A stretch of 64,000 nt of DNA, from the NCBI GenBank assembly GCA_016215405.1, contig JACRJQ010000008.1, positions 25,866-89,865 of the forward strand, written 5' to 3'. Source of the DNA: Candidatus Tayloriibacteriota bacterium (lineage in GTDB: Bacteria; Patescibacteriota; Minisyncoccia; Phycocordibacterales; UBA6065). Positions 4,751 to 40,442 of this stretch are shown piece after piece. Made by a program: the position numbers and the translations under genes. The notes under the pieces are model-generated. The model saw nothing but the letters and a program-made list of their open reading frames with translations, was not told where the DNA came from and ran no database searches. Position 1 is the first letter of the stretch; every line of letters begins with the position of its first letter.

Positions 4751-5959
4751 GTGATAGTAAACCTCCAAAAGCCCGTCGTCTACGTCACGCGCGACATCGA
4801 GCGAGCTTTAGGCATGGAGCCTTCAGGGAGCTACTTCGTCATATCGAACGATACGGCATACGGCAGGAAGGTCCGGGAAGCGTATCCTGACAACGTCCTG
4901 CTCGTCCGCGACCGAGGCGAAACCTCGGTAAAAGATACCGAGGTTTCGCCTCGGTATCTCGATACATACGATCTCCTGCTCATGCCCGAGGTGCAGAGGG
5001 AAATCTCAGACCGCGACGCCGACCTCCTCGTATTCCAGAACACCCCCCGCATCGAAAGGCTCGCCAAAGAGAAGGGCTGGAGCCTCCTCAACCCGTCGGC
5101 CATGCTCTCGCGCGAGGTCGAAGAGAAGGTCTCCCAGGTGGCATGGCTCGGCGAGGACGCCTCTCTCCTGCCCCCTCACCGCATCGCGCTCGCAAAGGAC
5201 GCGAGGTTCGAAGGCGCGAAGTTCGTGCTGCAGTGGAACCACTCACATACAGGAGAAGGCACCTATGTCATAGATTCGGCCGAAGCACTCTCTTCTGTAG
5301 CCTCGAGATTCCCGGATCGAGAATGCCGGATAACGAGATTCGTCGAGGGGCCGGTATTCACCGTGAACTCGGTCGTCGCGGAGGCGATCATCGTCGGAAA
5401 CCCGAGCTATCAGATAACCGGCCTCGCGCCCTTCACCGACCTTCCCTTCTCTACCATAGGCAACGACTGGGACCTTCCCCGCGACGAAGAGTACGCGGCG
5501 GTGAGCGAGGAGGTCCGTAAGATGGCGATCCGTGTCGGAGAGAGGCTCCGGCTCTCGGGCTGGTACGGGCTCTTCGGCATCGACGCCGTCTACGACGAGA
5601 AAGCCGGAAAGACATATCTCCTCGAGATAAACGCGCGCCAGCCCGCCTCGACCACGCTCGAATCGAAGCTCCAGAAGAGCGACTCTATATTCGAAGCCCA
5701 CCTCTCTGCGCTCCTCGGCCTTCCGGCTGCGAGCGGTCCGGAGATACGAGGGGCGCAGATCGTAAAGCGCGTCACCCGAGAGGCTTATTCCATAGACGAA
5801 GCCGCCCTCTCGGATAAGGGCCTCTCCCTCATCGGATACGAGAACACCGAGCACAACAAGGAGATCCTGCGCATCCAATCCGAGAGAGGTATAATGAGAG
5901 CCCACAACAAGCTCAACGACCTAGGGATATCCATAGCATCATGCATCCGCAAGATATAG
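4751..5959 (+). CDS. ATP-grasp domain protein (peptide/amide ligase-like).
   Basis: C-terminal ATP-grasp signature LSGWYGLFGIDAVYDEKAGKTYLLEINARQPAST. The start is uncertain (GTG 4751 or ATG ~4812). The upstream part of the track ORF (4232-4750) overlaps rsmI and is not coding. Confidence 0.7.
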   Translation: MIVNLQKPVVYVTRDIERALGMEPSGSYFVISNDTAYGRKVREAYPDNVLLVRDRGETSVKDTEVSPRYLDTYDLLLMPEVQREISDRDADLLVFQNTPRIERLAKEKGWSLLNPSAMLSREVEEKVSQVAWLGEDASLLPPHRIALAKDARFEGAKFVLQWNHSHTGEGTYVIDSAEALSSVASRFPDRECRITRFVEGPVFTVNSVVAEAIIVGNPSYQITGLAPFTDLPFSTIGNDWDLPRDEEYAAVSEEVRKMAIRVGERLRLSGWYGLFGIDAVYDEKAGKTYLLEINARQPASTTLESKLQKSDSIFEAHLSALLGLPAASGPEIRGAQIVKRVTREAYSIDEAALSDKGLSLIGYENTEHNKEILRIQSERGIMRAHNKLNDLGISIASCIRKI

Positions 5960-6747: not shown

Positions 6748-6775
6748 CGCCGCGCCGTAAGGCGCGGCTTTTTCT
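6748..6775 (+). terminator. Rho-independent terminator hairpin (GCCGCGCC-GTAA-GGCGCGGC + T-run).
   Basis: gccgcgccgtaaggcgcggctttttcttc, directly after the stop of the peptidase-like gene. Confidence 0.5.
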
Positions 6776-6785
6776 TCTCTTGCTA

Positions 6786-6882
6786 CCCCGCCGGATCCGC
6801 ATCCTCCTTTGCGAAGAACTGTCTGAGCCGAGTCCTCGAAGGCGAGTTCGGCAAGAAATAAGGCATGGATCGGCTGAAAGAA
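6786..6882 (+). repeat. Copy A of a ~95-nt conserved intergenic element (imperfect inverted repeat ending GGATCGGCTGAAAGAA), immediately downstream of a terminator and upstream of mraY.
   Basis: It aligns base-by-base with copies at 10712-10805 and 34295-34391. The shared core is ATCCGC..CTTTGCGA(A/G)GA..GTCTGAGCC..GAGG(A/G)CG..GCA..GAAA..GCGGATCGGCTAAAGAA. Confidence 0.55.
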
Positions 6883-6958
6883 AACGTTCGATTCAGAAGC
6901 CTATGAAAATTCATTCTAAACCTTCAAATTTGGCCCTTTCTGGCGTATACTCCACCTC

Positions 6959-9265: not shown

Positions 9266-10663
9266 ATGGAAAATCCCAAGAAGGTCCACTTCATAGGCAT
9301 CTGCGGCGTCGCTATGAGCGCCGTGGCGACTGCTCTGTGGCAGAAAGGATTTAAAGTGACAGGATCTGACGCGGGCTTCTATCCGCCCGTCTCGACGCAC
9401 CTCTCGAACGCGGGCATCCCCTACTATTCGGGCTGGCATCCGGAGAAGATGGTCGAGGGCGGCGCGCCGGACCTCGTCGTCGTGGGCAACGCCGTATCGA
9501 GCCAGAATCCCGAATTCGTCTACGTAAAAGAGAGAGGCATCCCTTTTAAATCCTATCCAGAAGCCGTGGGCGAACATCTCATAAAGCCCCATTCGGTGGT
9601 CGCTTCTGGCACGTACGGCAAGACGACTTCATCCGCGCTCCTCTCGCACATATGGAAGCATGCGAGCCTGAAGCCGTCGTACATGTACGGCGGACTCACT
9701 CAGGACGGCGCTCCGTCAGCCGCGGCGGATTCGGGCGAATGGTCTATCGTCGAAGGAGACGAATATTCCACTTCGAAATGGGACAAGGGAGCGAAATTCT
9801 TCCACTACAGGCCTACGCACCTCCTCCTCACGGCGGTAAAGTGGGACCATGCCGACCTCTACCCTACGGAAGAATCGTACTTCGACGCTTTCAAGAAGCT
9901 CGTCTCCCTCGTGCCCAAAGACGGCGTTATCGTCGGATGCATAGACGTCGAGAGCGTCCCCAAGCTCCTCGCGAAGAGGGATTTCATAAGCTACGGAGCT
10001 CACAAGGACGCGTCGTACAGGTACGAGAACATCGTCCAGACTCCTTCCGGACTCACTTTCGATATCGTCTACCACGGCAAGAAGTACAATATCGAATCCC
10101 CTCTCCTCGGCGCATACAACGCAGAGAACATCACGGGCTGCTTCGCTATGGCGTACGCGTGCGGCATCTCCCCCGGAGACATCTCGGATGCGATAAAGAC
10201 GTTTCCCGGGATGAAGAGGCGGCTCGAAAAGCGCTACGAGAACGCCGTGACAGTGATAGACGATATCGCCCATTCGCCGGAGAAGGCGCGATCGGTCCTC
10301 AACAACCTCCGCCACATCTACTCAGGTCTCGTCATCGCCGTCTACGAGCCGAACATCGGCAACCGCACGACCCAATCGAAGCCGGCGTACAAGGATGCGT
10401 TCAAGGACGCTGACACGGTCGTCATCCCCCGCCTCACGAAGCTCAAGGTAGACCCCGACAATCCTGAGGCGTATTTCGACGGAGACGAGCTCGCCGCGAC
10501 CATAGAAGAGAGCCACAAGGAGGTGCACTATCTCGACAGCGACGAAGAGCTCGTCGAATTCCTGGTAAAAGCCCGCGGCAAAGGCGACGTTATAGCGTTT
10601 TTAGGCTCCCACGGCTTTCGCGGGATGATAGAAGAGACGGTAAAGAGGCTGGCACAAAACTAG
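9266..10663 (+). CDS. Mur ligase: UDP-N-acetylmuramate:L-alanyl-gamma-D-glutamyl-meso-DAP ligase (Mpl)-like, or MurC.
   Basis: HFIGICGVAMSAVATAL...VTGSDAGFYPPVSTHL closely parallels the E. coli Mpl N-terminus (ILGICGTFMGGLA...VTGSDANVYPPMS). GTYGKTTSSA P-loop. Confidence 0.8.
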   Translation: MENPKKVHFIGICGVAMSAVATALWQKGFKVTGSDAGFYPPVSTHLSNAGIPYYSGWHPEKMVEGGAPDLVVVGNAVSSQNPEFVYVKERGIPFKSYPEAVGEHLIKPHSVVASGTYGKTTSSALLSHIWKHASLKPSYMYGGLTQDGAPSAAADSGEWSIVEGDEYSTSKWDKGAKFFHYRPTHLLLTAVKWDHADLYPTEESYFDAFKKLVSLVPKDGVIVGCIDVESVPKLLAKRDFISYGAHKDASYRYENIVQTPSGLTFDIVYHGKKYNIESPLLGAYNAENITGCFAMAYACGISPGDISDAIKTFPGMKRRLEKRYENAVTVIDDIAHSPEKARSVLNNLRHIYSGLVIAVYEPNIGNRTTQSKPAYKDAFKDADTVVIPRLTKLKVDPDNPEAYFDGDELAATIEESHKEVHYLDSDEELVEFLVKARGKGDVIAFLGSHGFRGMIEETVKRLAQN

Positions 10664-10669
10664 AAAAAC

Positions 10670-10695
10670 CACGTCAGAGGCGTGGCTTTTCTTAC
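10670..10695 (+). terminator. Rho-independent terminator after the mpl/murC-like gene.
   Basis: aaaaaccacgtcagaggcgtggcttttctt. Confidence 0.5.
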
Positions 10696-10711
10696 CTCCC
10701 CTCTCCAACCT

Positions 10712-10805
10712 CCTGTCGAATCCGCGTTCTTCTTTGCGAGGATCGTGCCGAGTCTTCGAGGACGCTTGCGCTCCGCAGCAAAGAAAACGCGGATCGGCTA
10801 AAGAA
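10712..10805 (+). repeat. Copy B of the ~95-nt conserved intergenic element (inverted repeat ATCCGCGTTCTTCTTTGC / GCAAAGAAAACGCGGAT).
   Basis: Aligned with copies A and C. An 18-nt near-perfect inverted repeat flanks a ~50-nt core. It follows the terminator at 10670-10695. Confidence 0.55.
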
Positions 10806-10857
10806 GGAGCTTGGATTCCGGGTCAAGCCCGGAAAGACAGAGGAGGGTGGGGACCCT

Positions 10858-11022
10858 CTATTTTCCCTCGTCCACGATCTCTAGAGCGACCTTATCTCCA
10901 TCGAGAGAGACGACCTCGAGCACGATCCCGCACAGAGGGCATTCTATGACGTACCCCTTAGTGATCTTCGGATGCTTCGAGACGTCGATATCGTTCTTGC
11001 ATTCTGGGCAGACGCATTTCAT
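10858..11022 (-). CDS. LysW/ArgW-like zinc-ribbon mini-protein (54 aa).
   Basis: MKCVCPECKNDIDVSKHPKITKGYVIECPLCGIVLEVVSLDGDKVALEIVDEGK. It matches the LysW architecture CPEC...C..CG..LEVV.LD plus an acidic tail, but the C-terminus is EGK rather than ...EE/DWGE. The larger track ORF (10858-11292) is only its out-of-context upstream extension. Confidence 0.5.
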   Translation of the reverse strand: MKCVCPECKNDIDVSKHPKITKGYVIECPLCGIVLEVVSLDGDKVALEIVDEGK

Positions 11023-11929: not shown

Positions 11930-12811
11930 ATGCTTACCCCTCAGATAGAAGCGCCAGAGATAGCAGAGGAGCTCGGCATCCCGAAGCTCTATATAAAGCG
12001 CGAAGACCTGCATCCGTACGGGTCGCATAAGGGCCGCTCTATCCCTATGATGATAGACCTCAAGGCCGCCCGAGGGGCCAAAGAATTCGCCATATCTTCT
12101 TCCGGGAACGCGGCGATAGCGGCCGCTCGGCATATCGAGAAGAGGAACCTCGCGGGAGACGACCTGAGGCTCACCATCTTCGTAGGCGAGAGGATAGGCG
12201 AGGCGAAAAGAAAAGCGCTCGAGAACGTATCGATCGACGAGAGGATCAAGGTCGTGGACTCTCCCCGCCCCCTTCAGGCCCTCTTCAACCTGCTCAAAAG
12301 CGAGAACGGAAAGCCCGAGAGCCTGCGCCAGTCGACCGACCCTGAGGCTCTGCCAGGCTATAAATCGCTCGCCTTCGAGATCGCAGGCACCCCCGACCTG
12401 TCCGCGGTCTTCATCGGCACGTCTTCGGGGACATCCGCCCAGGCGCTCGCTGAATATCTCATAGAGCACGAAAAGAACGCCCAGATACACGTCGTCCAGA
12501 CGCGCGGGAACTCCCCTATCGCTCGGGCGTTCGATGCCGAAGAATACGAAGGCGAACCCTCTCTCGCCGATGCCATCGTAGACAAGGTCGCTCACAGGAA
12601 GGACGCCCTCGAAGAGGCGGTGCGGAGGACCGGAGGCTCGGGATGGGTCGCTTCTAATGCCGACATAGAGAAGGCCGTAAGGCTTTTGAGCGAGAAGGCG
12701 AATGTCCGAGCCACGCCGAACGGAGCCTTGGGCCTCGCCGGCGTCATACGCGCGATCTCCAAAGGCTGGAAGCCAGAAGGCGCGGTCGTAGCGATCGTGA
12801 CGGGAAGGTAA
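11930..12811 (+). CDS. PLP-dependent fold-type II enzyme (threonine synthase / cysteine synthase superfamily).
   Basis: LHPYGSHKGRSIPMM (PLP-lysine loop), glycine-rich loops SSGNAAIAAA and GTSSGTSAQA. Confidence 0.6.
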   Translation: MLTPQIEAPEIAEELGIPKLYIKREDLHPYGSHKGRSIPMMIDLKAARGAKEFAISSSGNAAIAAARHIEKRNLAGDDLRLTIFVGERIGEAKRKALENVSIDERIKVVDSPRPLQALFNLLKSENGKPESLRQSTDPEALPGYKSLAFEIAGTPDLSAVFIGTSSGTSAQALAEYLIEHEKNAQIHVVQTRGNSPIARAFDAEEYEGEPSLADAIVDKVAHRKDALEEAVRRTGGSGWVASNADIEKAVRLLSEKANVRATPNGALGLAGVIRAISKGWKPEGAVVAIVTGR

Positions 12812-16405: not shown

Positions 16406-17032
16406 CTAGACTGCCGGATGAGGGTCGGGAGCCTTTACAGGGAGCGCTTTGAGGCTCTGGTATACGTAGACCGTCGCGAGAAGGCATACGGGAGACGTGA
16501 TGAGAAGGCCGACCCCTAGAGCGAGGGCCCCGAGAAGATTGAGGAGGAAGAGGACGACCGAGAATCCGAGAAGGTCCCAGAATCGCCCTTTCGTAAGCGA
16601 CCAGCTCCTCTTTATGGACTCGAGGGGCTTCATATCCTCCTCGACCAAAGCGAAGGCGAAGACGCCGAGCCTCACCACGAGATAGACGCCGGGAAGTATG
16701 AGCGCCGCGAAACCGGCGATATAAGATACCGTAAAGAGGAGGGTCGCGAGGACGTAGCGGCCGAACATCCCCCAGCTCGCCGCGAAGATATCCTTCGCCT
16801 CCGGCTTCCCTCCCGCATGGATCTTGAGGCCGACCCGAACGAACGTGAGCATCGCGAAGAGGTTGACCGCCATCCCCAGAAGCTGCGCGGCCAGGCTCTT
16901 GTCTCCCGTGAATCCGATTATGCCCGCGGCGACGAAGAACCCGAGGGTGAGAAGGACGAGGAATTTCACGTTCTCTCGGAATTTCGTCCAACCGTAAGAA
17001 AGGGCCTCCTTTATAGTGAATGTAGATTGCAT
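16406..17032 (-). CDS. Polytopic membrane protein, function unknown.
   Basis: 208 aa, ~6 TM helices (GFFVAAGIIGF, LATLLFTVSYIAGFAALILPGVYLVV, LLGFSVVLFLLNLLGALALGVGLLI). Confidence 0.5.
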   Translation of the reverse strand: MQSTFTIKEALSYGWTKFRENVKFLVLLTLGFFVAAGIIGFTGDKSLAAQLLGMAVNLFAMLTFVRVGLKIHAGGKPEAKDIFAASWGMFGRYVLATLLFTVSYIAGFAALILPGVYLVVRLGVFAFALVEEDMKPLESIKRSWSLTKGRFWDLLGFSVVLFLLNLLGALALGVGLLITSPVCLLATVYVYQSLKALPVKAPDPHPAV

Positions 17033-17895: not shown

Positions 17896-18157
17896 GACGG
17901 AATTTTAGCATGGAGAAACGGCTTCAAATCCTAGACGCAGCTCCACAGGAGCTGCTTACGCGCACACTAGGAATTTTGGTCATTACATGACCAGTATCCG
18001 TTTCCCATTTCTTCGGATGCGTACATGTGGTCACAGGTCTCTTCGCCTCGTCAGGCTCACAGCCCGCGACCCCGCCTCGCGGCTTTTCGAAACGAAAAGC
18101 ATCGCTCCGGCTCGCACAAACGGAAAATCTTGCCACTGGCAGGATTTTCCAAATTTG

Positions 18158-18230
18158 TGCGCGTACTAGGATTTGAACCTAGGACCCCATCAGTATCAGT
18201 GATGTGCTCTACCAACTGAGCTATACGCGC
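18158..18230 (-). tRNA. tRNA-Ile (anticodon GAU).
   Basis: Reverse complement gcgcgta-ta-gctcagttggtagagc-a-catca-ctGATac-tgatg-gggtc-ctagg-ttcaaat-cctag-tacgcgc-a. All stems pair. 73 nt. Confidence 0.9.
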
Positions 18231-19351: not shown

Positions 19352-20855
<1,504 letters not shown>

Positions 20856-21260
20856 AAACCGCAGATGGAGATCCCGAAGGACTTCTATCTGAGGCGAACG
20901 GAACAAAATAGATCACAGTATGCGAACTATCTTCTTCCTGGGAGATTCACGGGTGCTTTCCCGCCTCCACGATCCTATGGAGCATGGGGTCGAAAGCCCT
21001 CTTACAAATTTTCATTTGAATAGAGCCTACCCTCATGCTTATATCCGAAGAATACACTTGAACTTGCACAATACAGTTAGGATACTGTTTTACCAGTACA
21101 CTTTAACTTGCATTTGTTCTCTCCGCCGTGGCCAATGTGGCCCGGCGGAATTGATTATCTCAATATTTCAACGATCTCCTCACTAAGAGACCGAGGGAAT
21201 CAAAAAGTGCTTTACCAGCACTTTCTGACGTCCCACAAGGCTCTCAATGAGGTAAGGGTA

Positions 21261-28580: not shown

Positions 28581-28678
28581 AATCGTTACGGTGTTTGTAA
28601 TGTAGGGCTATACTAGCCCCTTTTTCCCTATTTTGCAAAAGAAGATCCGCAGGCACGACGCCCGCGGATCCTTCGAAG

Positions 28679-34142: not shown

Positions 34143-34249
34143 GCTACTCGCGATTTCTAGACTGGTCTTTGAAATTTTTCTTTTAGCCCTTTCCTTTGTC
34201 GGGCACAGATAATCCCAACAAGGGAAATGGACGGAGGTTGAGAGAGGAA

Positions 34250-34290
34250 ATAGCCCGATTCGCGAAGCGAACCGGGCTATTTTCCCTCTT
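34250..34290 (+). terminator. Rho-independent terminator after the GT4 gene.
   Basis: aaatagcccgattcgcgaagcgaaccgggctattttccctctt. Confidence 0.5.
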
Positions 34291-34294
34291 AATA

Positions 34295-34391
34295 CCCCGC
34301 CGAGCCCGCGTTCTTCTGAGCGAGGACTGTCTGAGCCTGAATCTATGAGGGCGAGTTCCGCAGCGAGGAAAATGCGGATCGGCTAAAAGAA
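34295..34391 (+). repeat. Copy C of the ~95-nt conserved intergenic element.
   Basis: ccccgccgagcccgcgttcttctgagcgaggactgtctgagcc...gagggcgagttccgcagcgaggaaaatgcggatcggctaaaagaa aligns with copies A and B. Confidence 0.55.
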
Positions 34392-34447
34392 AAACTATAG
34401 GATGCAGCGCGGACGCATCGCCCCCAAAGCAACTATGGTCGTTTTGC

Positions 34448-36420: not shown

Positions 36421-36543
<123 letters not shown>

Positions 36544-36742
36544 CTCAATCCTCGCTATTTGAAACACAACAGATAAATATGAATTCTGAGAAAAGACAGT
36601 AAGCCTGAGCTTCCTGTGATTTCTAAATTTCCTAATAAGATCGGGTAATTAGTACTTCTCGGCTTAACACATTACTGTGCTTACACCTAAAGCCTATCAA
36701 CCTAGTAGTCTTCTAGGGCCCTCAAACGATTCCTTATCTTGG

Positions 36743-36785
<43 letters not shown>

Positions 36786-36921
36786 GACATAGCTACTCTG
36801 CGTTGCCACGGGCGTGACAGCAGATAGACCAGCGGTCCGTTCACTTCGGTCCTCTCGTACTAGAAGCAAAGCTCCTCAAGAATCAACGCCTGCAGTAGAT
36901 AGGAGACCAACCTGTCTCACG

Positions 36922-37200
36922 CTTCTTTTCGCATGTTGCCATGCGGAATGGACTATATCTTCATCCTTATTTATTTATTCATAAGGAGATCAACGTGTAG
37001 TCTCTACGGACGGGAACCCGCGCTCCCTTTCCTCGGTATTGCCCCCAATCATCTCCATTGTGGGTTTTACCGATATTAGTTGATGACGTACATGAAAGTT
37101 GCCCTTCATGACCGCCGTGATTGGTTGTGTCTCGTTTGTTTGTCCTTGATGTCCGAGGGATTCAGACTGTAGAGCCTATAATCTTTCGATTATGTTCTCC
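36922..37200 (-). other. ~280-nt ORF-less insertion (putative group I intron) in 23S at the E. coli ~2593 (I-CreI) site.
   Basis: It interrupts the conserved gctgggttcagaacgt|cgtgagacagg. The exon sequence resumes precisely on both sides. Confidence 0.55.
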
Positions 37201-37860
37201 ACGGTCTGAACCCAGCTCACGTGCCTTTTTAATTGGCGAACAGCCAAACCCTTGGGACCTTCTCCAGCCCCAGGATAAGACGAGCCGACATCGAGGTGCC
37301 GAACTCCGCCGTCGATATGAACTCTTAGGCGGAACGAGCCTGTTATCCCTAGAGTAGCTTTTGTCCGATAATCTTCCCCCGCATCTAATGCGTAAGGTCG
37401 GTTCACTTAGCTCTGCTTTCGCATCTGCTCGACAAGTACGTCTTACAGTTAAGCAAGTTTATGCCCATACACTATCGCCACGGTTTCCATTCGCGGCTAA
37501 CTTACCTTAATAGGCTCCTCCGTTACTTTTTAGGAGGATAGCGCCCCACTAAAACTACCCACCAGATACTGTCTCCCGCGGTTTTTGCCCTCGGGGTTAG
37601 AACATACAACGGCGAAGAACGCTATTTCACTGGCGACTCCATGCTGGCCGAAACCGCACTTCAAAGTCTCACGTCTATGCTACGCATCGCAATCGTATGC
37701 TCAATATCAAGCTGTAGTAAAGCTTCTAGGGTCTTTTCGTCTAACTGCAGGTACCCGGCATCTTCACCGGGATTGTATTTTCACCGAGCTGTACTTCGAG
37801 ACAGTTGCCCAGACGTTACACTATTCAACGCGTCAGAACTTACCTGACAAGGAATTGCGC

Positions 37861-38073
37861 TCAACTATTCCTCAGAGTTGGACTCTATCTTCAGCCTCTC
37901 TTTTAAGGGAGTAGGCTGCGCGGCGTTGGTCTCTATTTGACCGCGTACGGACTGACGGTGCATTACTGCCACCTCAGGTAGCTATCTGTGTAATTTCTAT
38001 TAGGCTCTTATTTATCAACACAACTATAGATCCGTCCCAGTCCTTCTGCATCCTTCCGAAGAAAGATGCAGAA
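37861..38073 (-). other. ~210-nt ORF-less insertion (putative intron) in 23S at the E. coli ~1925-1931 site.
   Basis: It interrupts the conserved ggtcctaagg|tagcgaaattccttgtcgg. The flanking sequence matches E. coli on both sides. Confidence 0.5.
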
Positions 38074-38917
38074 CCTTAGGACGGTTATAGTTACCGCCGA
38101 CATTCACCAGGGCTTACATTCATCAGCTTGATATAATCGCACCGCAAATGGTTGACCTTCTGGCATTGGTCAAGTGTCACCCCCTATACATCCTCTTACG
38201 AGTTCGCAGGGAGCTGTGTTTTTGATAAACAGTCGCCAGGCATACTTTAGCTGCGGCCCCTTGAGTAAACAAAGGGCAAGCCTTATCGCTAACTTACGGC
38301 TGCTTTTTTGCCGAGTTCCTTGAAGTACCTTCACTCGTTCGCCTTCGTCTTCTCGACGTGATCACCTGTTTCGGTTTTCGGTACGGATCACCTCCGGTTG
38401 TGCTTAGAGACTTTTCTTGAAAGCGCGCTTTGCATAGTTCCCCGTAGCAAGCTACGGCTTCCCTCCTGTCTTTAGGCTCGCTAATTGAATAGCTGCTTGC
38501 GGGATTTTCCTCGCAAACGCCCTCTGACCAAAGACCCCAATCCAATAAGGGGCTACGCATACTGTGCTCCGTCATCCCATCGCACCGGGTGTGAGTCACG
38601 GAATATTAACCGTGTGTCCATCAGGTACGGCTTTCGCCATCCCCTTAGGCCCGACTAACCCTTCGCTGATATCCATTGCGAAGGAAACCTTAATCTTTCG
38701 GCGTGCGGATATCCCATCCGCATTGTGGTTACTTGTGCCAACATTCTTACTTCTCTACGCTCCAGCATGGGTCACCCCTTTGCCTTCAGCGCGAAGAGAA
38801 TACTCTCCTACCAGAACATCTATACGAATATAGATGCAATCCTCAGTTTCGGTATCATGCTTTAACCCCGATCATCTGCGGCGCAGACTCTCTAAGTGAG
38901 TGAGCTGTTACGCTTTC

Positions 38918-38949
<32 letters not shown>

Positions 38950-39529
38950 TCACCGTCGAAGAAAATCCACCACCTCCCTTGTACTTAGCATGAATTTTGG
39001 GACCTTAAATTGAGATTCGGGCTGTTTCCCTTTTGTCTAATGGAGCTTAGCCCCCACAGACTTACTGCCGTTCTTTTGACCAGAGGTATTCGGAGTTTGA
39101 TAGGTTCTGCGATCTTTCGACCTGTCAGAATCTTCCAGTGCTCTACCCCCTCTGGGAACGAACGACGCTATGCCAAAACATATTTCGGAGAGAACCAGCT
39201 ATTACCGAGTTCGATGAGCTTATCACTCCATACCACATGTCATCGCAGAGTATTGCACGTCTCTAGCGTTCGGTCCTTCCTCTATCTTTCGACAGAGTTC
39301 AACCTGCACATGGCAAGCTCACCCGGCTTCGGGTCTGATACGTACTACTTTGTCGCGCTATTCACACTCGGTTTCCCTGCGGCTCCGGGCATTCAAGCCC
39401 TTAGCCTTGCAGCACGCATCAACTCGTTGGCTCATTCTTCAATAGGCACGCCGTGACGGTAATAAATTACCGCTCCGACTCCTTGTAAGCATATGGTTTC
39501 AGTTCTATTTCACCTCCCTCTCCGGGATA

Positions 39530-39569
<40 letters not shown>

Positions 39570-40442
39570 TTCTGGAATATTTAGCCTTAGCGGTTAGTTC
39601 CGCCAGATTCCCTCAGGCTATTCGTGTCCTGAGGTACTCAAGAATGGCAATAAAAGAGGTGTTTCGCTTTCGCGCACGGGACTATCACCCTCTGGGGTCT
39701 GTCTTTCCAGACAATTACGCTAACGAAACACTTTGTAACTCTTTCCACTATAAATAGTGACACTGCCACCTTACTACCCCCGATCTTAATCGCGTCCTAC
39801 GTCTTGCGACATAATCCGCGATTAAGACCGAGTTTGGGCTATTTCGCTTTCGCTCGCCACTACTAACGAAATGTTGTCGACATACATCGACATTGTTTTC
39901 TCTTCCTCCTGGTACTGAAATGTTTTACTTCCCAGGGTACGCTCATTCATGTCAAGCATGAATGTCTCTGGTATCTCTACCAGAGGAGTTGCCTCATTCG
40001 GAAACGACCGGATTAACGCCTGTTCAGCGGCTCCCCGATCATATCGTTGCTACACAACGTCCTTCATCGCTTCTCAGAAGCCTAGGCATCCACCATATGC
40101 TCTTAAATTTCCTATTAGGAAATTTAAAAACCACTTAACTTCTCTCAATGATATCGGCCTGCTTACAACAGACCGACATACAATTCATTTTTACCTGTTG
40201 CCCGTTTCTTTTGGTAAAGAAACGGTTTATCTCGATCTACCGTCTATAGATAGATGAGAATCGTCTCGCGCTCTTCTTTTGACGGGCCGACCTGGCCCTA
40301 AGCGCGTACGGGGTTTCGTTTTCAAATAACTCTCTGAAAGAAAAACCGCTCTTCGGAGAGCGGCATCGGAACAGGGCCAAATCAATGGCCTATTTGATGC
40401 GCGTTCTCTTAAGGGGATTCAACATATTCAGAGGTAGCCATA

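Follow-up and report, generated by a model that had tools for sequence, protein, structure and literature searches.

The imperfect palindrome lying between an mpl-like and a lysW-like gene in the 64-kb stretch of DNA analyzed here (the window) belongs to a small dispersed repeat family, and resembles a small DNA repeat that is either selfish or weakly co-opted, as opposed to a conserved structured RNA. On balance, we favor the reading that this copy (copy B; 10697-10820, + strand) is a young, lineage-restricted, non-coding and imperfectly palindromic dispersed repeat of the REPIN/MITE/ERIC kind, which was copied in trans. The element has a format of about 115-125 nt, with two arms of about 23 nt placed around a center of 40-50 nt, and the family is known from three full copies in the window and one partial copy in another genome. 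Each of the full copies starts at the T-tract of a predicted transcription terminator and occupies a site that is empty in nearly all related genomes.

Copy B is situated, as the initial annotation had it, between two convergent genes, both of which were recovered in our analysis, namely a Mur-ligase/Mpl-type gene (9266-10663, + strand; locus tag HZA81_03725, showing 100% identity to an NCBI protein encoded on a 189-kb contig of a groundwater CPR/Patescibacteria MAG, Candidatus Taylorbacteria) and a lysW-like gene coding for a Zn_ribbon_LysW domain (10858-11022, - strand). The intergenic region between the mpl-like stop at 10663 and the stop of the convergent LysW-type gene is 194 nt long. After the mpl stop there is a predicted bidirectional intrinsic-terminator hairpin (10662-10692, both strands), comprising an A-tract, a core stem at 10669-10685 and a T-tract; a hairpin just before copy B had indeed been noticed earlier, though at the slightly different position of 10670-10695. 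This hairpin abuts copy B and is taken to lie outside the repeated sequence, and relatives possess a terminator hairpin at the matching place with sequences that differ from it. On the opposite side a small hairpin abutting the lysW stop codon (10842-10859) is terminator-like on both strands, and together with 10702-10714 it constitutes an outer inverted repeat around copy B.

Within copy B the left arm ATCCGCGTTCTTCTTTGC (10720-10737) and the right arm GCAAAGAAAACGCGGAT (10778-10794) are complementary except for one bulged C in the left arm. The long stem with 18-nt arms that had been described for this copy is accordingly present with this single bulge, and the center between the arms measures 40 nt in place of the approximately 50 nt originally given. 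The stem extends outward through the pairing of GTCGA (10715-10719) with TCGGC (10795-10799), followed by that of CTCCT with AGGAG. Two inverted units and a spacer are thereby combined into a single long hairpin with a 23-nt left arm (10715-10737; GTCGA followed by ATCCGCGTTCTTCTTTGC) and a 22-nt right arm (10778-10799; GCAAAGAAAACGCGGAT followed by CGGC) around the 40-nt central region (10738-10777), in which pairing is weakest and the sequence is least conserved. No self-complementary core was detected within either arm in an inverted-repeat search of 10600-10900 with a 6-nt seed. The RNA fold of 10693-10815 on the + strand has an energy of -53.9 kcal/mol versus a mean of -37.2 for shuffled sequences (z = -4.70), a stability reached by 0 of 200 dinucleotide shuffles, while the fold of the minus strand has a z of -2.43. 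Copy B was also rightly singled out as the best-preserved inverted repeat, with a z on the + strand of -4.7 versus -1.4 for copy C, which folds only slightly better than shuffled sequence, and +0.78 for copy A, which folds no better than it. Pairing is degraded in both of these copies relative to copy B. For copies B and C, folding is more favorable on the + strand than on the - strand.

The three copies, A (6776-6896), B and C (34281-34399), are all on the + strand and display pairwise identities of 66-72% over 107-147 nt. In blastn comparisons copy B aligns with copy C at 72% identity over 107 nt (E 3e-11) and with copy A at 66% identity over 147 nt (E 1e-8). Profile searches with nhmmer and a covariance model recover copy B (E 1e-32 and 98.9 bits, respectively, over the full stretch homologous to A and C), copy C (E 3e-35 and 97.5 bits) and copy A, which is the most degenerate of the three. 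These were the only full-length copies found in the 64 kb by blastn, nhmmer and the covariance model with filters off, and the sole remaining covariance-model match below an E of 0.01 is a 59-nt hairpin (34178-34236). Copies A and B were encountered again in a separate Logan assembly made from the source sample (L089), which excludes an origin in assembly error. Given that T-tracts, A-tracts and GC-rich hairpins are functionally convergent, one could imagine that generic terminator-flanking sequences merely resemble each other by chance and that there is no family at all. However, the alignments exceed 100 nt with E-values of 1e-8 to 1e-11 in a 64-kb search space, the nine-base GGATCGGCT in the right arm is invariant in the three window copies (its version in the L103 genome, discussed below, being GGGCCGGCT), and a fourth copy was found in that other genome with an E of 6e-6. 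The probability of such a coincidence is negligible, and the blastn and nhmmer results together with the L103 copy exclude it for practical purposes. Elsewhere in the window, an intergenic hairpin AGATCCGCAGG...CCCGCGGATCC (28633-28678; covariance model 17.1 bits, E 0.02) has in its stem the motif GATCCGC/GCGGATC, which also occurs in the arms of the repeat, and might represent either a chance match or a minimal relative.

The claim that the element is repeated and terminator-adjacent holds for all three homologous copies. In every case the upstream + strand gene is closed by an intrinsic-terminator hairpin, and the copy begins at the T-tract of this hairpin. These preceding hairpins differ in sequence from one copy to another. 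The terminator hairpin before copy A (6749-6768, + strand) has 8 G-C pairs followed by TTTTTCTTCT, and copy A lies between it and a promoter-like site, TTCAAA-17-TATACT (6923-6951, + strand), of the downstream glycosyltransferase-4 gene, the -10 region of which is conserved in L005. Copy C is preceded, and overlapped at its left end, by a long hairpin followed by TTTT (34238-34292, + strand; 26-nt arms, 85% complementary), and is succeeded by a terminator-like hairpin of the convergent RodA gene (34401-34419, - strand), for which the A-rich right end of copy C supplies the T-tail. Thus copies B and C both lie between convergent genes, and their right-side hairpins are terminator-like on the minus strand (10858-10843 and 34419-34401). 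If the predicted terminators work, the element probably lies in short stretches that are transcribed from neither side. The shared orientation of the three copies relative to the upstream terminator would arise by chance one time in four and is no more than suggestive. In all copies the T-rich left end and the A-rich right end are roughly complementary; three copies do not suffice to fix the ends, and with the ends known only this roughly, inspection of the junctions revealed no consistent direct repeat.

As to whether a common structure is conserved, the palindrome itself is real, given that 84% of the cells pair in the + strand consensus structure versus 35-50% in slid registers. However, the initial annotation's further proposal of a conserved structured element was not borne out, at least with three copies, on which a covariation test has low power. 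The covariation term of the three-copy consensus fold is positive, that is penalizing, on both the + strand (+2.35) and the minus strand (+0.79). Among the 21 pairs of the long stem, 6 are invariant, 6 show a one-sided change, 8 are broken in at least one copy and just 1 is compensated, and the observed covariation was reached by 206 of 500 shuffles. Comparison of the folds of the three copies, which had been suggested beforehand, hence gave no supported common structure, as would be the case for a degenerate palindromic repeat, and as far as three copies tell the reading as a conserved structured RNA is not supported. The element was also unmatched in Rfam 15, both in a search of the whole window at gathering scores and in searches with each copy at permissive E-values; apart from the rRNA and tRNA genes, these yielded nothing but generic-hairpin matches below threshold, to families of miRNA precursors. 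Hammerhead and other small ribozymes and group II intron domain 5 were likewise rejected for want of a match to any Rfam family. With regard to the rRNA genes themselves, the 23S rRNA match (36628-40120, - strand) is 3493 nt long versus the 2925 positions of the model, and thus includes about 570 nt of inserted sequence, with no match to an Rfam intron family, and the 16S gene (19353-20856, - strand) is unlinked, being about 16 kb away from the 23S-5S pair (5S at 36428-36535, - strand); a tRNA-Ile gene is found at 18157-18230.

We also rejected a small protein-coding reading: indels of 4 and 5 nt between the copies are incompatible with a reading frame common to them, and ORFs that overlap one copy are not maintained in the others. 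Nor is the element an intrinsic terminator in its own right, as on the + strand its long stem has an A-rich tract after it and on the - strand a U-rich tract before it, and the terminator scan was passed only by the separate flanking hairpins. One of these, namely the hairpin adjoining copy B, scores as a terminator on the minus strand, and this raises the possibility of a minus-strand small RNA gene, with the adjacent hairpin (10692-10662 in copy B) serving as its terminator and its 5' functional region provided by the conserved right arm. Such a gene would also account for the presence of a hairpin at a fixed distance from every copy, though the hairpin sequence varies, and for the fact that site A, compared with other genomes, has acquired a hairpin along with the element. 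However, the promoter scan detected no conserved promoter-like site on either strand of the copies, the upstream region on the minus strand included, the minus-strand T-tail is poor at copy A, and there is neither covariation nor an Rfam match to speak for an RNA. Furthermore, the similarity between the hairpins of A and B, which share GGCG(C/T)GGCTTTT, is weak evidence, as GC-rich stems of the AAAGCCGCGC and AAAGCCGCG types are generic terminators in this genome. This bears also on the idea that the hairpin might form part of the repeat; upstream of the hairpin, GTTGAGAGA is common to A and C and is not found at B. We consider a small RNA gene quite improbable.

Orthologous loci were fetched from public assemblies, and the genes flanking each of the three sites keep the same order in them. 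Site A spans 214 nt in the window versus at most 58 nt in the 21 relatives with the most similar glycosyltransferase-4 protein, the flanking genes almost abutting in some of them. Site B, with its 194 nt in the window, is reduced to 6-30 nt in most relatives, and in the closest relative (84% Mpl identity; L090/L091) consists of 79 nt with only a long terminator hairpin inside. Site C spans 305 nt in the window versus 70, 59, 16 and 19 nt in L100, L102, L104 and L105, respectively, being empty in both the closest GT1 relative (L104) and the RodA relative L105. The element is, then, an insertion relative to related genomes, with filled and empty orthologous sites as in MITEs: A, B and C are empty in relatives, and C is filled in L103. 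In this exceptional genome (run ERR7015355; RodA 88% identical) the copy at site C is found on a 2.3-kb contig which ends 84 nt past the RodA stop, within the element copy (TCCGCAGCGAAGAAAACGCGGGCCGGCTAAG...), and the partial copy (2257-2340) is recovered by nhmmer with an E of 6e-6 and by the covariance model with an E of 8e-4. A contig break within the repeat is what would be expected of a multi-copy sequence in a short-read assembly. The L103 genome probably holds several near-identical copies, and would be the best place for studying the family.

Apart from L103, no further copies were present in 1.43 Mb from 88 loci, of which 85 are from related Patescibacteria and three are unrelated chance matches from a pattern scan, and the covariance model recovered only the partial L103 copy when run over 32 of the closer loci. 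The strict pattern CCGCRTYCTYCT-N52-64-GGATCGGCTRAA had 0 matches in the GTDB species genomes, and blastn against the phage collection gave no match to the element. Three matches to the strict pattern in JGI metagenomes show no similarity between the anchors and were dismissed as chance, as were 8 matches to a looser pattern in IMG/VR. Weak nhmmer matches in L034, L042 and L100 fall in coding-like sequence and were treated in the same way.

The right arm is identical at 27 of 31 positions (87%) between the window and L103, even as the four-fold degenerate sites of RodA are only 44% identical between them, that is essentially saturated, and the spacer of 46-56 nt between RodA and the element is unalignable. 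In view of the saturation of synonymous sites, an inherited and neutrally decaying copy does not explain this degree of conservation, and the alternatives are selection on the arm, a recent independent insertion into the same type of site, or gene conversion/homogenization among copies. The L103 right arm is about equally similar to window copy B and to the orthologous copy C. It (GGGCCGGC) also pairs better with the left arm of copy C (GCCGAGCCC) than does the right arm of copy C itself, which implies that at least one of the lineages changed without compensation.

This conservation of the right arm could be taken as a mark of a selected cis-acting 3'-end module, in which a hairpin in RNA or DNA would reinforce termination, insulate convergent units or stabilize the upstream mRNA. 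The constant placement at the terminator T-tract in the same orientation, the very stable fold of copy B, the advantage of the + over the - strand in the folding of B and C, and the frequent occurrence of long single palindromes at the mpl-lysW gap of relatives all agree with such a role. However, most relatives function without the element at all three sites, the stems in copies A and C are eroded and uncompensated, and the upstream terminators already look competent. Moreover, the tract after the element is A-rich and not U-rich, so that the element is no intrinsic terminator itself. We regard a selected module of this kind as unlikely, and continue to favor a dispersed repeat.

A different question is whether the repeat is complete, or the remnant or end-fragment of a larger mobile element, for instance a solo end of the IS200/IS605 type or a MITE of about 220 nt with 14-nt inverted-repeat ends. 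At site C, and at this site only, a perfect 14-nt inverted repeat, TTTTTCTTTTAGCC (34175-34188) and GGCTAAAAGAAAAA (34381-34394, at the right end of copy C), brackets a 220-nt unit. Both matches are perfect and on opposite strands, where even with 2 mismatches allowed chance would give 0.25, and the two 14-mers could be the terminal inverted repeats of the 220-nt unit. In addition, a short hairpin followed by GGCTAAAAGAAAAA on the minus strand (34175-34236, - strand; covariance model 19.2 bits, E 0.005) adjoins copy C in inverted orientation. The absence of recognizable target-site duplications would also be typical of IS200/IS605 elements, which usually do without them and carry sub-terminal hairpins. 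Against this, no outer partner is seen at copies A and B, whose ends are simply T-rich and A-rich; the window ORFs scanned do not include a related transposase; and searches of GTDB, JGI, IMG/VR and the related loci uncovered no longer homologous element. There is in our estimate a slim chance that the repeat derives from a larger element in this way.

More generally, a Pfam scan of 39 ORFs in the window identified no transposase, RAYT, integrase or reverse transcriptase, and neither nhmmer nor the covariance model found in the window a parent insertion sequence sharing the ends of the element. Template/variable repeats of DGRs, retrons and integron attC sites were rejected, given that the ORFs scanned include neither a reverse transcriptase nor an integrase, that the neighbors of the element are housekeeping genes in conserved order, and that the differences between copies are not adenine-specific. 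Among the other genes of the window is one for a type IV coupling-protein-like product (1-1538, - strand), which is of the DUF87/TrwB type in relatives and shows 79% identity to its L005 orthologue. It runs off the left edge of the window, which accounts for the apparent lack of a clean ORF there.

Related Paceibacteria were found to have their own 80-125-nt imperfect palindromes, dispersed or single, between convergent genes, which are unrelated in sequence to the window family. Dispersed pairs occur in L016 (11428-11513 and 12635-12725) and L030 (958-1046 and 5387-5475), and single palindromes are seen at the mpl-lysW gap in L009, L011, L026, L028 and L075. This suggests that palindromes proper to each lineage may be a general feature of such gaps in the clade. 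A further case is that of L027 (Minisyncoccia MAG JBEKVT010000001.1), in which two 125-nt palindromic repeats (12550-12674 and 16617-16741) lie in separate intergenic gaps. The centers of the two are about 93% identical, their 30-bp outer arms differ at many positions, and 10 of the 47 predicted pairs have changed on both sides to Watson-Crick partners, with 0 broken and no G-U. The window family offers nothing nearly as strong in favor of a hairpin being maintained, whether in DNA or as a single strand. Compensation of this sort would suggest that copying or selection acts on the hairpin form itself, at the level of DNA or of a single strand. These 10 compensated changes, along with the 87% identity of the right arm in our family, underlie a rather far-reaching suggestion that Paceibacteria-type CPR have a class of hairpin elements not described so far, which are specific to individual lineages, measure about 100-125 nt, home to or are retained beside terminators, and are maintained and not decaying. 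Such elements could be REPIN-like partners of an unknown enzyme, or genuine insulators between transcription units; at present we consider the existence of this class doubtful, and rank the reading of a decaying dispersed repeat well above it. A palindrome of another kind, a perfect inverted repeat with two 20-nt arms and a 5-nt loop (4911-4955), is located within the ATP-grasp_3 gene of the window (approximately 4766-5959, + strand). At the same place the protein has gained about 11-12 residues in frame (..RDRGETSVKDTEVSPRY..) relative to the L004 and L005 orthologues, which lack them, and the repeat resembles the in-frame palindromic inserts known from Rickettsia.

Based on these observations we propose that an enzyme whose gene lies elsewhere would have copied the dispersed element in trans to a small number of sites, probably in the form of a single-stranded hairpin, with the copies either persisting or preferentially landing just beyond terminators. 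In a streamlined genome, which we take to be roughly 1 Mb in the source group, the gap beyond terminators may be the sole dispensable DNA, in the sense of being neither coding nor needed for transcription; alternatively, the hairpin with its T-tract may itself be the target. Following insertion the copies would decay, presumably as neutral sequence: copy B, being nearly perfect, would be the youngest or the best kept, copy C is eroded, and the eroded copy A would be the oldest. Any effect on the host would in this scheme be secondary, such as the provision of a back-up hairpin for read-through transcripts or of a spacer between converging polymerases.

Few known genomes are as streamlined as those of CPR/Patescibacteria, for which a low repeat content is the usual description, and our search of the full-text literature found no description of such elements in CPR bacteria. 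A repeat present at about one copy per 20 kb, along with unrelated analogous families in neighboring lineages, indicates that small hairpin elements still colonize such genomes, and the positions of the copies reveal where these are tolerated. Repeats of this type also break short-read assemblies, as in the L103 contig, and could be mistaken for regulatory RNAs. If the right arm is a binding site, or if terminators are targeted, the family would additionally provide a handle on an unknown mobilizing enzyme in uncultured organisms. As it stands, however, this is an ordinary kind of element in a host lineage that is unusual, and new, for its kind.

The element can be compared with several known families without being assigned to any. 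The ERIC/IRU sequences of Enterobacteria are imperfect palindromes of about 127 nt that are intergenic, non-coding and patchy at orthologous sites. The element is like them in size, imperfect palindromy, intergenic location, patchy presence and absence, and lack of coding capacity, but it has no sequence similarity to them, and whereas ERIC sequences belong to transcribed DNA, being found in operon spacers and in 3' UTRs ahead of the terminator, the element lies beyond terminators. Its constant orientation and its start right behind the hairpin and T-tract of a terminator recall the class C group II introns, though at about 120 nt the element is far too short for one and has no intron domains, Rfam intron match or reverse transcriptase. 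Correia/NEMIS elements and other bacterial MITEs (reviewed in PMC3184786), which can act as terminators or RNA-processing hairpins, are like it small, non-autonomous, inverted-repeat-bearing intergenic insertions, often beside gene ends. The definition of a MITE calls in addition for terminal inverted repeats matching those of a parent IS and for target-site duplications (TA in the case of Correia), whereas the copies here showed a perfect 14-nt pair around site C only and no consistent direct repeat at their junctions.

The closest in form are the REPINs, which are REP doublets that form hairpins and are mobilized by RAYT transposases, and whose populations are of mixed age and subject to mutational decay (Bertels & Rainey, PMC3337134). 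They differ from our element in that its arms are not themselves short GC-rich palindromes, in that no RAYT gene is found among the ORFs of the 64-kb window, and in the small number of copies and the CPR bacterium as host. On the other hand, the two share an organization of two inverted units with a spacer of tens of nucleotides that make a long hairpin, arms of about 20-25 nt, a total length of about 90-120 nt, an extragenic and multi-copy distribution, and copies of mixed ages with decay. The ends too are comparable in being asymmetric in composition, REPIN orientation having been described as 'AA-TT' (Bertels & Rainey, PMC3337134). We accordingly describe the element as working like a repeat of the REPIN/MITE type, with no claim of membership in any named family.
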